A DNA stretch of 52,518 bases from Candidatus Pacearchaeota archaeon (GTDB lineage: Archaea > Nanobdellota > Nanobdellia > Pacearchaeales > GW2011-AR1), in contig JAGVXG010000008.1 in the NCBI GenBank assembly GCA_018303885.1, positions 1 to 52,518 of the forward strand, in the 5' to 3' direction. The translations under genes and the position numbers were made by a program. The notes beneath the pieces are model-generated. The model ran no database searches. It saw nothing but the letters and a program-made list of their open reading frames with translations, and had not been told where the DNA came from. Of the stretch, positions 2,701 to 52,518 are shown piece after piece. Position 1 is the stretch's first letter. The number at the start of each line of letters is the position of its first letter.

Positions 2701-3078
2701 ATGGCAGGCACAAAAACAAGGGAAATAACTATAACTGAATCAAAAGGAGCTTTTTCCTTGCCAAAAGGAGCTCTTTCACTGTTCAAAAAATCAGCAACAA
2801 CGTCTAAAAAAGACTATGATTTTGAAGGCATCTCTGCGTTGAGGCATCTTTTAAGCAATGAAAAAGCACGGATGTTAAACGTAATAAAAACGCAAAATCC
2901 GGGTTCTATTTATGAACTAGCTAAAAAACTTAATCGTAGGTTTAAGCCAGTGGCTGATGACATAAGGCTTCTTGAAAGGTTTGGCTTCATAGAGCTTTCA
3001 GAAGAAAAGATAAAAGGCAGGATTCGCCACAAGCCAGAAGTGATTGTTGATACTGTTACAATACATATTAAGGTTTAG
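2701..3078 (+). CDS. HVO_A0114-like winged-helix transcriptional regulator
   Basis: LLSNEKARML..IK...PGSIYELAKKLNR...V..DI.LLERFGFI wHTH motif. Confidence 0.8.
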   Translation: MAGTKTREITITESKGAFSLPKGALSLFKKSATTSKKDYDFEGISALRHLLSNEKARMLNVIKTQNPGSIYELAKKLNRRFKPVADDIRLLERFGFIELSEEKIKGRIRHKPEVIVDTVTIHIKV

Positions 3079-3131
3079 GATTGTGATTAATTACAATAAA
3101 TAATAAAAAGGAGCAATACCTATAGATTATA

Positions 3132-3368
3132 ATGAATTTAGAATATAAAGCAGAATTTAAAAAATCTGACTTAATAGGAGATATTGCCGAATCTATAAGA
3201 CATAGAAGACCGGGTGTAGACATATCAAGTAGCAGAAATCTTGCAGAGCTTTCTTTAGCCGATCTAACTTTACAAGGAAATATGTTAATATATAGAATGT
3301 TAGTTGAATCAGGCACAAATTATGCACTTATTAGAGCTGATGGTGGTGAAATAGAACCTGCAATTTAA
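3132..3368 (+). CDS. hypothetical protein
   Basis: 78-aa ORF filling the gap, preceded by a TATA-like element. Confidence 0.5.
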   Translation: MNLEYKAEFKKSDLIGDIAESIRHRRPGVDISSSRNLAELSLADLTLQGNMLIYRMLVESGTNYALIRADGGEIEPAI

Positions 3369-44036: not shown

Positions 44037-44107
44037 TGGGACTACTGGGAGTCGAACCCAGGCATCGCGAGCTTCAGTCGCGTGTTCTCCCGTTGAACTA
44101 TAGTCCC
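44037..44107 (-). tRNA. tRNA-Phe(GAA)
   Basis: GGGACUA/UAGUCCC acceptor stem, CGCGA-CUGAAGC-UCGCG anticodon arm, GGUUCGACUCC T arm; CCA not encoded. Confidence 0.93.
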
Positions 44108-46021: not shown

Positions 46022-46374
46022 GTAAGTCGGGAATAGGCCAGCTTCTGTCAAACCCTGTAATCAGACGGTTTGTGTTAACATTCAACTAAGCGGCTTAAAG
46101 CCTTGCACCGGTTGAGACAGCCGTTTCATCAAATCTTTCACTTCGCAGTTCAACTCACGTTTCATAACTCTGTGAAAGCTGTGTCGTTTCTCTTCTGGAG
46201 CTTTCCTTCGCAGGAATCTTCCTTTCGAAAGACAACCTTAATGTGGTGGCCGGACCTTACCTCACGACGAGAACATTACTGTTCGCGAAGTCCCCGAAGG
46301 GCGAACTTAGAAATCATTTCTTTGATTTCTTGCTTAATTAAAAGCAAAGTCCCGAAGTTAACTACCCGACTTAC
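46022..46374 (-). ncRNA. rnpB: RNase P RNA
   Basis: P1 GUAAGUCGGG/CCCGACUUAC; CR-I GAGGUAAGGUCCGGC; AGAAAC and UGAAAC; GGUGCAAG; CR-V ACAGAAGCUGGCCUA. Confidence 0.92.
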
Positions 46375-49179: not shown

Positions 49180-49324
49180 TATTTTGAAAAGGTTTTTTGC
49201 TTAATAAAATCTATGGCGATGTTTTACAAAAAAGATTAAGAAATAATTATTATAAAAAACAACAGATAAGCAAGAGAAGTTTTCCTGATGTGTTCTGAAA
49301 CATACTAATAAGATTTTGTAAACA

Positions 49325-50260
49325 AAATCTCAATAAAGCTTTTAGTAGTTGTCTGCTGAAATTCTCGCCGAAGCTTGAATCTTACACAGCAACTCTATCA
49401 ACGTCGTCTTCTACGACGGCCTTAGTTGTCTCGTTTTGCGTGTGGCTTCGAGCTTAGATGCATTCAGCTCTTATCCAGATGACGCGTAGCTATGCAGCCT
49501 GCCATTTGACAACTGCTCACCAGAGGCGTCCGAGCCTGGTTCCTCTCGTACTACAAGCTCGTTACACTCAGACAACAACACACCTAGTAGATATCATACA
49601 AACTGTCTCGCGACGTTCTTAACCCAGCTAACGATACCTTTTAATGCGTGAACTCCGACACCCTTGCACGCTTCTGCACGCGCAGGATAGGTAGAGCCGA
49701 CAGCGATGTACCAAACCGCCCCGTCAATATGGACTATCGGGGGCGACAAGCCTGTTATCCTTGGGGTAACTTTTCTATCAGACACGGCTTCTATTAAAAA
49801 AGCACGTGGGTTCACTAGGCCAATCTTTCGATCATGCATTCCTTGCTAATCAGAATACATTCAGACAAGCTTTTGCCCTCGCACTCAACTCCGGGTTTCC
49901 AAGCCGGATGAGCTTGTCTTAGGGTCCTATCGATATTTTTTCGACAGGGCGCCGCCCCAGCCAAACTGCCCGCCTGTTACTGTTCTCATAAAGAGTAAGC
50001 AAAATTAAGAAAAACAAGTAGTATTACACTTTCGCTCCATCGCAACCTAAATTACGACTTCTACGCTCCTACTTATTCTATGTGTATCTCTTAAAATTAC
50101 AACAACAAGTTGCAGTAAAGTTCCACAAGGTCTTCGCTTCCCACTAGGTGTCCGTGGCATTTTCGCCACGAAGTGTGTTCAGAAGGTCCCAACTAGGGAC
50201 AGGGACAACCTCGTTAAACCATTCATGCACGTCGCCATTCAGACGACAAGGCATTACGCT
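49325..50260 (-). rRNA. rrl: 23S rRNA, 3' exon (about E. coli 1932 to the end; 3' end approximate)
   Basis: peptidyl-transferase region GGAUAACAGGCU, sarcin-ricin loop AGUACGAGAGGAAC, GCAUCUAAGC. Confidence 0.95.
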
Positions 50261-50338
50261 TATATTTGTTGTTCAATAATTGATCACTCAATTATTTTGC
50301 TTTATGTCGCCATAAAGATCGCACTCTATCTTCACAAC

Positions 50339-50560
50339 TTATTCTTCAGAAACAGATTTTGCACTTTCAATGACTTTTCGTGCTTCTCCACGAAATAGCT
50401 TGCTAGCATTTAATATCTCAATGGATGTCATTGAACCATCTTTTGCTATGTCTATAACTACTCCGTTTCCAATCTCAATGCTTTTCCAATAATCTTTATC
50501 ATTTATTTCTACATTGAGCACGTCTGCTTCGTCATCATACCATATTTCTTTTGCTTTCAT
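50339..50560 (-). CDS. DUF2283-like protein (putative antitoxin), intron-encoded in P8
   Basis: YD.EADVL.V, S.EI..GVVID...DG....IEILNAS motif. Confidence 0.85.
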   Translation of the reverse strand: MKAKEIWYDDEADVLNVEINDKDYWKSIEIGNGVVIDIAKDGSMTSIEILNASKLFRGEARKVIESAKSVSEE

Positions 50561-50561
50561 A

Positions 50562-50795
50562 TTAATTTAACCAAAATGCCGTAATTATAAATACTTTTCC
50601 TTTTGATTTTTTATATACGACTTTTAAAGTTCTTCCAGATTGTGGAATTTTGGAAATTGCATTTAAAGCATCTTTCCACTCTTTATCTCTTAGTTCTTTT
50701 GAATTGCTAAGAGCATACTCTATCATATCATTGGTTATATCTTTTCTCTTCTTGAGTTTTTTCTTCAACCAATGCTTAGAATATTCTATTTCCAC
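50562..50795 (-). CDS. DUF4258-like protein (putative RelE/BrnT-fold toxin), intron-encoded in P8
   Basis: I.YSKH....R..I....I...L and GR.LKVVY.......IITA motifs; coupled to the DUF2283 gene. Confidence 0.75.
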   Translation of the reverse strand: MEIEYSKHWLKKKLKKRKDITNDMIEYALSNSKELRDKEWKDALNAISKIPQSGRTLKVVYKKSKGKVFIITAFWLN

Positions 50796-50862
50796 TAATT
50801 CTGAAATATGTTAGATTTTATATAAATTGTGTCGAGCGTATTAGTGTCTGAGGATTCTAGAA

Positions 50863-51165
50863 TTAATTTTTTCTTAATTTATCTTCAAGCTTTTCAGTTC
50901 CTAATGAGATATCTAATAAAGAATCTTTTGATAAAACATTAGACTCTAAAAGAGGTCTAACATCAACTAACTCATGATCAGTATTTTCTCTAGGAAAAAA
51001 ATTACCATATCTTTCTATTGTCTCCTTATCACCACATACAGGTATTCTATATCTTCCTCTAGATGTTAAAGATACTGATTCACTCTTATATACATCATTT
51101 GTATGAAGGATTCTAAGTGTTCCATCATCTGCTCTAGTAGCATACGCGTATAATTCATATGTCAT
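50863..51165 (-). CDS. hypothetical protein, intron-encoded in P6
   Basis: 100-aa ORF with its own TTTATAAA box at about 51188-51195; no LAGLIDADG, HNH or GIY-YIG motif visible. Confidence 0.65.
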   Translation of the reverse strand: MTYELYAYATRADDGTLRILHTNDVYKSESVSLTSRGRYRIPVCGDKETIERYGNFFPRENTDHELVDVRPLLESNVLSKDSLLDISLGTEKLEDKLRKN

Positions 51166-51568
51166 GATTTTTTAATAGAAAAACACTTTATAAACCTTTC
51201 TCTTTGTTACCTTTTTAAAATAATAACTAATTCTAGTCTTTCCTGCATGGTTGTCCGCAATTTGAGATTTTTACCATCAATTTCTCGACGGTACTCAAAT
51301 ATTCTCGGACGTTCCAGCATATAGCTCGATTTTCTTCTTTGGTTTAACTCTTATTTTAATTCTGTAACTCTTAATTGCTCGCTGTTGCTCGATTAGTCTA
51401 AATTGCTAATAACAAAACCCCGCGAATTTTACATTAACATTTCTTATCAATCTTGCGAAGCACAATTTCATTTAACTATTTACTTTCTCTGACTCTTGAA
51501 GCGTTTTTCCCGTCGATAAAACGAGAAAACCGTAAGGCCACGTTTGTAACCACTTTCAAGTTACTGAA

Positions 51569-52278
<710 letters not shown>

Positions 52279-52335
52279 CATTCTATATTGTACTGGAGAA
52301 TTAAGTATCAACTTAACGTTGAATATGATTAAGGC

Positions 52336-52518
52336 TTAGTTGAAACCATGTGACGCATACCAATTTATAGAATCAATAGGAATTGTTTCAATTCCCTCTA
52401 TATTCAAATTTTCATCTCTCTGAGAACCATAAACCAAATGTTTTGGGGAATCGTTGCCAGGTCTTATTAAACAAACACCTGCAACATATGCTACCCTCAC
52501 AAATCCACCAGCTTCAAA
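52336..52518 (-). CDS. 3' end of an ORF interrupting the 23S near helix 45 (partial)
   Basis: open frame FEAGGFVRVAYVAGVCLIRPGNDSPKHLVYGSQRDENLNIEGIETIPIDSINWYASHGFN* where rRNA sequence is expected. Confidence 0.65.
   Translation of the reverse strand, partial: FEAGGFVRVAYVAGVCLIRPGNDSPKHLVYGSQRDENLNIEGIETIPIDSINWYASHGFN

Follow-up and report, generated by a model that had tools for sequence, protein, structure and literature searches.

A predicted toxin–antidote gene pair in the P8 loop of a group I intron within the 23S rRNA gene of a Pacearchaeota archaeon

Group I introns are thought to persist by means of homing endonucleases or else to decay. Genes other than endonucleases can lodge in their loops, as rps3 does in the rnl introns of fungal mitochondria, and toxin–antitoxin pairs stabilise plasmids, integrated elements and integron cassette arrays. 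We analysed a stretch of 52,518 nucleotides (nt) from a Candidatus Pacearchaeota archaeon (assembly GCA_018303885.1, contig JAGVXG010000008.1; the whole stretch is hereafter referred to as the window) in which the 23S ribosomal RNA (rRNA) gene is interrupted by a group I intron whose P8 helix encloses a predicted toxin–antidote operon. The name of the insertion site, LSU/1931 (LSU, large subunit), comes from Nawrocki, Jones & Eddy (2018, PMC6125680). That paper describes IB4 introns at LSU/1931 and LSU/1923 of DPANN archaea (Woesearchaeota and Pacearchaeota) and of other archaea, and reports Pfam matches for 21 of 39 archaeal introns, all of them to LAGLIDADG. A 2025 paper on a group I intron database does not mention toxins. 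The open-access literature that we searched, at the level of abstracts and exclusive of supplementary tables, reports no toxin–antitoxin cargo in group I or rRNA introns.

The intron in the window shares with the published IB4 introns at LSU/1931 its host gene, site, host phyla, the U.G pair of P1, the P3/P7 pseudoknot and the J8/7 consensus, and its relatives carry LAGLIDADG genes in a peripheral loop, as the published introns do. It differs from them in that P8 holds a toxin–antidote operon, P6 holds an orphan gene and the last intron base is A rather than G. As in other group I introns with non-endonuclease cargo, the peripheral loops have taken up whole genes, and the difference lies in the cargo, which here is a predicted toxin–antitoxin pair. 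The stabilisers of plasmids and integrons offer a second likeness, since in the window, too, a small addiction pair with its own promoter would be the cargo of a mobile element. Judging from the sequence, however, the carrier would here be a self-splicing intron in an essential rRNA gene, with the pair inside a ribozyme helix. Both halves of the arrangement are of known kinds, non-endonuclease cargo in a group I intron on the one hand and a toxin–antitoxin pair carried by a mobile element on the other; their combination in P8 appears to be new.

The 23S rRNA gene lies at 49322-52518 on the minus strand (Rfam LSU_rRNA_archaea, 998.9 bits), and the contig ends within it. The rRNA alignment halts after ..CUCUUAAGGU at 51569 and picks up at AGCGUAAUGCC at 50260. 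This break delimits an insert of 1308 nt at 50261-51568 on the minus strand, which also carries every feature of the gene and the intron given below. The insert separates the part of the 5' exon present on the contig (51569-52518) from the 3' exon (49322-50260), which is 89% identical to the exons of relatives. The junction at 50260 is fixed because loose ends of reads there run on into the 5' exon end of intron-less rRNAs. We classify the insert as an IB4-like group I intron at LSU/1931, with an A at 50261 as its last base. The number in the site name follows E. coli numbering. Three open reading frames (ORFs) of 100, 77 and 73 amino acids (aa) lie within the insert, all in the sense orientation relative to the rRNA. 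The assembly, which is 85% complete, contains a single 23S locus and a single copy of the 77-aa toxin family. A bulge–helix–bulge intron, which would have a 4-bp helix flanked by two 3-nt bulges at its junctions, was rejected by inspection of the junction sequences only, as no complementary 4-mers were seen around the two junctions.

The core helices were assigned by comparison with homologous introns that share this site and lack the two small genes (L068, 579 nt; L070, 789 nt; L071, 626 nt; and the 5'-truncated L065; L numbers denote the loci compared). Set side by side, these four sequences from the same genus and order gave P1, P3, P4, P6, P7, P8, J8/7 (AAGAUAU/G) and P9. In P1, which was read from the sequence, the internal guide GCCUUA (51533-51538) pairs with exon UAAGGU (51574-51569), which puts U.G at the 5' splice site, and L068, L070, L071 and L113 show this pairing as well. 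The 5' strand of P3, UCGAGC (51324-51329), pairs with GCUCGA (50832-50837), and P6 is formed by 51229-51238 with 50853-50864. The 5' strand of P7, CAGACACU (50843-50850), has its partner AGUGCG at 50320-50325; relative to other members of the family one of its pairs is flipped from G-C to C-G, a compensatory change. J8/7 (AAGAUAG), for which the family consensus is AAGAUAUAGUCCG, is followed directly by the 3' strand of P7 (together 50320-50332), and the P9 hairpin (50300-50317) and a second 3' hairpin (50275-50296) were placed by the Rfam alignment and by comparison.

A 15-nt motif over P6' and P7 was matched in 105 of 401 genomes sampled from the order, and 110 stretches were retrieved around the matches. 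In all 52 cores with a J3/4-P4 anchor the P3 strands pair at six of six positions, with 16 paired variants, when the better of two spacers is taken across the several hundred bases of loop that separate the strands. The Rfam group I model (Intron_gpI, RF00028) scores 19.8 bits on the window (E 0.024, threshold 50), where the P6 and P8 loops are swollen by genes, and the confident part of this match covers J8/7, P7' and P9. On L101, a compact homolog with matching core motifs, the same model scores 71.0 bits (E 2.1e-17, cut-off 50), and its alignment gives the same helix assignment as the comparison of homologs.

The strands of P8, CACAAUUU (50824-50831) and AAGUUGUG (50333-50340), can form eight pairs, which RNAduplex extends to 10 pairs at -10.1 kcal/mol, and they enclose a loop of 483 nt. 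The helix is identified as P8 because in relatives the LSU/1931 introns form a short hairpin exactly here, with P3' on one side and J8/7 on the other; among 69 such short P8 regions, with 67 different sequences, 66 fold as a single hairpin. The stem in the window is of the type common in the family (CACAAUU.../...AAUUGUG). Since it closes around the cassette, the architecture of the ribozyme core is kept. A preliminary description of the window had proposed a self-splicing rRNA intron with two coupled ORFs between these strands and a last stop codon abutting the 3' strand. The rRNA boundaries and the P1/P3/P7/P8/J8/7 core now support a group I intron at LSU/1931. The P8 strands lie on the minus strand where they had been placed, with homologs backing what had been identified by eye, and the two ORFs occupy the loop as described, the TAA of the second (50341-50339) overlapping the P8 3' strand by 2 nt.

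The first gene of the pair (50562-50795, GTG start) encodes a 77-aa DUF4258-like protein. At E ≤ 0.01 it has 62 homologs with 52-100% identity, most of them 77 aa long, among which 10 residues are invariant, including H8, K12, D37, W40, K58 and Y61. The AlphaFold2 model has a predicted local distance difference test score (pLDDT) of 92.3. The leading Foldseek matches of this model are all toxins of the RelE superfamily, namely BrnT (template modelling score, TM, 0.68), HP0892, RelE, YafQ and HigB2, which points to a BECR (RelE/BrnT-like) fold. PMC11980606 counts DUF4258 as a toxin family of the BECR fold and terms it 'undescribed in the literature', and a 2026 preprint (10.64898/2026.08.28.747851) places it in the colicin-like branch. 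The product resembles the type II toxins of the BECR fold (RelE/ParE superfamily) in being a small alpha/beta protein. The locus resembles BrnTA and HigBA in that the toxin gene comes first and a small partner gene adjoins it. BrnT/BrnA also supplies the nearest solved structure to the window toxin, and a tight complex is likewise predicted for the window pair. The toxin–antidote order differs from the antitoxin–toxin order given for DUF4258 in PMC11980606.

The second gene (50339-50560, ATG start) is co-oriented with the first, begins 1 nt past its stop codon and encodes a 73-aa protein of family DUF2283 (Pfam PF10049; E 2.3e-13, 50.5 bits, cut-off 23). A DUF2283 gene stands directly after the toxin gene in 60 of 60 genome loci. 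Complex prediction for the two proteins gave a score of 0.84 (runs of 0.80, 0.86 and 0.84) vs 0.02 for the best control, with a partner pLDDT of at least 85 and runs agreeing in at least 98% of contacts; in the calibration of the tool, the mark was reached by 58 of 80 solved complexes and by 2 of 110 mismatched pairs. The prediction supports binding of the 73-aa protein to the 77-aa toxin. The predicted interface covers the invariant H8, K12 and K58 of the toxin. The antidote would be translated by coupling and would mask the toxin's conserved face. The model of the 73-aa protein (pLDDT 93.6) consists of a five-strand sheet and two helices. A sequence-profile search of solved structures gave no match for either the toxin or the antidote profile. 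Proteins with a DUF2283 domain are described as regulators or anti-activators on integrative elements in PMC4755241. The resemblance to a toxin–antidote pair suggested in the preliminary description stands up to hidden Markov model searches and structure prediction of both proteins and their complex: the Pfam families, the RelE/BrnT-like model, the constant partner and the predicted complex all agree with it.

The cassette has a TATA box, TTTATATAAA, at 50817-50826, 22-31 nt upstream of the GTG; as TTTATATAAA(A), it overlaps the end of the P8 5' strand. We aligned 60 upstream regions on the start codon, from the window and 59 loci (one of them the window's twin), a few rows being misplaced by extrapolation. 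In the profile, positions -36 to -32 are rich in A (up to 43 of 60 rows) and positions -29 to -22 form an A/T-only block (C+G down to 3-4 of 60). These position-specific columns bear out the separate TATA box that had been proposed for the pair, and the BRE/TATA profile (BRE, transcription factor B recognition element) is common to chromosomal and intron-borne cassettes. A TATA box so near the start implies a leaderless or nearly leaderless mRNA, and we infer that the cassette's own promoter drives its transcription into a leaderless mRNA. We found no evidence for the alternative raised earlier, that the toxin is coupled to rRNA transcription or splicing.

We then surveyed the P8 loop in 86 cores with a P3-like continuation. 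This tally leaves out the window and four duplicates, as well as 10 regular-expression matches without a P3-like start, which were dropped as probable chance. In 69 cores the P8 region is at most 100 nt long, a 13-78-nt hairpin, and in one it is 168 nt without an ORF. Nine cores were left unclassified since the contig ends or ordinary genes follow the core (L095, L106, L109, L118, L124, L141, L144, L171 and L183). The remainder carry genes. Five hold other two-gene toxin–antitoxin pairs, so that such cargo does recur in related 23S introns: in three (L084, L152 and L156) a small upstream gene is followed by a ParE/RelE-type toxin (ParE_toxin, with Pfam E-values of 2.6e-8 and 1e-8, and in L156 recognised by tblastn alone), and in two (L165 and L173) by a PIN domain (PIN_2; E 6.8e-7 and 3.8e-22). 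Two hold a single NYN-domain gene (L127, 1869-2396 on the minus strand, E 1.4e-21; L128, 1868-2398, minus strand). All of the P8 cargo genes are in the sense orientation relative to the rRNA, and in the seven cargo-bearing introns tested (L173 left out) the flanks can pair as a P8 stem, at -3.9 to -10.1 kcal/mol. A single NYN-domain gene also lies in P8 of another intron of the family (L011:4653-5144).

The DUF4258/DUF2283 cassette itself occurs in P8 at three or four 23S sites and in two intron classes. It is present in diverged LSU/1931 introns, in L193, with exons 76-83% identical to those of the window, and in L197 and L198, which are without the P6 gene. L011 intron 1 and L189 have it too, in a homologous core whose site lies within the 5' third of the 23S gene. 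Finally, it lies in P8 of a different intron type with J8/7 AAGGUAUAGUCC, 649 nt downstream (L002, L009, L190 and L191). Of the 13 metagenome loci with the closest toxins, eight are intron-borne. A 64-row tree of the toxins places all 13 rows with the intron label in a single clade of 26 rows (support 100/95); this label requires three changes on the tree, and 0 of 500 shuffles were as clustered. The alignment is short, which leaves the inside of the 26-row clade unresolved. The window toxin groups with that of L191 (97/84), which sits in the other intron type, and for this reason the cassette seems to move between P8 loops.

Three side observations concern cassette-bearing introns. In L003 (2533-3472), an intron fragment running from P4' to the 5' strand of P8, with a 104-aa P6 ORF and the toxin pair, lies between ordinary protein genes and is flanked by the 13-nt direct repeat GGATTGTTTTAAA; this element seems to be mobile as DNA. 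Antisense tRNA-like genes are present in the 3' tails of two introns, that of L011 (2499-2570, minus strand; Rfam tRNA, 46.7 bits) and, identified only by eye, that of L193 (about 3075-3150).

We lean towards reading the locus as a selfish, promoter-bearing addiction cassette that rides in P8 of a group I intron and protects the intron from loss. The recurrence of different toxin–antitoxin pairs in the same loop fits the cargo of a selfish element. The pair, expressed from its own promoter, would punish loss of its carrier DNA by releasing the toxin, and this release would work against intron loss, such as conversion to an allele without the intron. The cassette would gain a neutral harbour within an element that spreads between rRNA sites and hosts, and the two selfish elements would be in partnership. 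The cassette probably stabilises the intron, and it may plausibly do so in place of homing; in Pfam searches the three ORFs of the intron matched no endonuclease family, LAGLIDADG or other.

Several observations weigh against this interpretation. Toxin–antitoxin pairs occupy only 6 of 87 cores, with the window counted. Among the 60 genome loci of the toxin family, four are intron-borne, one is the intron fragment in L003, and near the other 55 neither rRNA nor an intron core is seen; the cassette can therefore do without introns. LAGLIDADG genes are present in 0 of 7 cargo-bearing introns vs 8 of 37 others, a contrast that is not significant and too small to claim. The Pfam match of the 77-aa protein to DUF4258 (E 6.8e-4, 20.3 bits) is below the cut-off of 25, and the Foldseek matches have TM scores of 0.5-0.68 with modest E-values, 5e-3 and weaker. 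The model of the 73-aa protein has no clear relative among solved folds (best rows with E 0.26-0.35, one of which is a chain of the EF-Tu/CdiA/CdiI entry, TM 0.54), and neither Pfam, which gives DUF2283 only, nor the model reveals a recognisable DNA-binding domain in it. For these two reasons it looks like an immunity protein more than a classical autoregulating antitoxin. A DUF2283 partner without a detectable DNA-binding domain and a DUF4258 score below the cut-off set the pair apart from the type II systems of the BECR fold. In the RNA run X15 only exon bins are covered; one 59-nt contig of this run joins 50260 to 51569 with a shorter side of 20 nt, but it may be another organism's and is evidence neither of splicing nor of silence. 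Every sequence used here is of metagenomic origin.

The main rival is that a mobile selfish module uses the insertion-tolerant P8 as a safe harbour, persisting for itself and adding no stability to the intron. We consider it rather unlikely. It accounts readily for the 55 of 60 family members that are chromosomal and for the L003 fragment between ordinary genes with its direct repeat. The P6 and P8 loops of the intron family also house unrelated orphan, NYN, HIT and HTH genes, and because they take in so many unrelated genes they behave as general cargo slots. The rival fits less well with the recurrence of three unrelated toxin families, along with NYN, in the P8 loop. It also has to contend with the single clade formed by the intron-borne DUF4258 copies across hosts with diverged exons; as the exons of these hosts are only 76-83% identical to those of the window, the clade suggests long joint persistence. 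Moreover, any working addiction pair would shield its carrier as a by-product, so that the two explanations differ mainly in whether the intron benefits.

A switch that benefits the host, acting in stress, growth control or antiviral abortive infection with its dosage tied to rRNA transcription, is possible in principle; we regard it as improbable, and our results lend it no support. The cargo operons, being sense to the rRNA, are part of the pre-rRNA and of the excised intron, and the toxins found all have RNase-type folds, both of which such a switch would accommodate. Against it, the cassette's own promoter, common to chromosomal copies, makes it independent of rRNA transcription, and its distribution among relatives is patchy. 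NCBIfam and PADLOC searches of the three intron ORFs returned only noise, with no match to a known defence-system model.

That the locus is an artefact, either a chimeric assembly or a set of decaying, functionless ORFs, is scarcely credible and already largely refuted: rRNA regions commonly assemble badly and this contig terminates within the 23S gene, but three more contigs have the identical structure, zero-mismatch pieces from three other studies cross the junctions, most homologs keep the 77-aa length with 10 invariant residues, and both protein models are confident. The three are separate contigs, each running from exon through the intron with its cassette to exon: L001, a contig of a named metagenome-assembled genome, whose intron is 100% identical to that of the window over the full 1308 nt, and the metagenome contigs L187 and L188, which are 100% identical in both parts compared (intron positions 1-773 and 1231-1308). 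Thirteen DNA runs each contained 58% or more of the sampled words. Logan contigs from three studies other than the possible source provide the zero-mismatch pieces (50308-50615, 50586-51340 and 51339-51598), which cross the two cassette/core junctions as well as the 5' splice site with even coverage. Misassembly of the ORFs into the intron, raised in the preliminary description as a possible objection, is thereby ruled out. Some joints in the DNA runs skip parts of the intron, with short sides of 20-30 nt; the best reading is that they derive from related introns in other organisms of those samples.

The reading of an addiction cassette that protects its intron can be extended to the group, tentatively and with confidence well short of even. 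DPANN rRNA group I introns may be platforms for gene cassettes, with P6 and P8 taking in small genes that bring their own promoters. Addiction modules (DUF4258, ParE/RelE, PIN and perhaps NYN) may have been recruited repeatedly to P8 as a second means of persisting, with post-segregational killing replacing endonuclease homing or acting alongside it. The cassette would move between the P8 loops of intron classes, and one sub-lineage would have altered its nucleotide pocket and would splice with a terminal A. Recurrent toxin–antidote cargo would be another route by which an intron avoids loss and a clear case of cooperating selfish elements. The cassette also puts the gene for a predicted RNase-type toxin inside the sole 23S rRNA gene of a reduced-genome archaeal symbiont from groundwater. 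As gene callers usually skip rRNA genes, intron loops may contain a pool of small genes that goes unannotated.

The P6 loop holds the 100-aa ORF (50863-51165), an orphan for which we found no Pfam family, no homolog but itself and no usable Atlas match. A BRE/TATA motif of the type common to ordinary genes, AAAGGTTTATAAAG, precedes it at 51186-51199. In 43 anchored cores, the P6 loop is closed in 11, carries LAGLIDADG in eight and otherwise contains mostly unique small ORFs, among them HIT, HTH and small membrane proteins. The LAGLIDADG count is seven by motif and eight by clustering, and L114 was confirmed by Pfam (LAGLIDADG_1, E 3e-24). P6 appears to be a hypervariable slot for cargo. An element of about 40 nt that resembles a promoter (..AAAAGGTAACAAAGAGAAAGGTTTATAAAG..) lies at 51185-51227 of the window, at L062:1501-1544 (G000 contig C7) and in many relatives; copies with 80-96% identity precede ordinary genes both in this genome and in related ones. 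It seems to be an extended form of the lineage's consensus promoter.

The window intron ends ...AAAUAUA before AGCG, so that its terminal base (50261) is A in place of the omega G. Among relatives, the base before the AGCGTAAT junction is G in 38 cases, A in two and T in 11, the T-ending cases belonging to introns inserted farther upstream. In three of three introns with the flipped P7 pair it is accompanied by the terminal A, namely those of the window, of L113 (1508-1616), a cassette-free sister, and of L193 (2426-3218). With a standard P7 at the same junction, 38 introns terminate in G and one (L147) in A. The three flipped-P7 introns are probably one lineage, and for that reason the flipped pair and the terminal A would be a single retained double change rather than three events. 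We take the flipped pair to be the counterpart of the guanosine-binding pair in the Tetrahymena ribozyme, and together with the terminal A it may represent a natural change of nucleotide specificity. A specificity switch has reportedly been engineered in the Tetrahymena ribozyme, and introns that end in A and have a flipped pocket would be its natural counterpart. The other intron type (J8/7 AAGGUAUAGUCC) may also be without a terminal G in L009 (55-1140), where the boundaries are ambiguous by 1-2 bases.

Downstream of the 23S rRNA gene and on the same strand, the window also encodes an archaeal RNase P RNA (46029-46295, minus strand; 117 bits) and a tRNA (44037-44107, minus strand).

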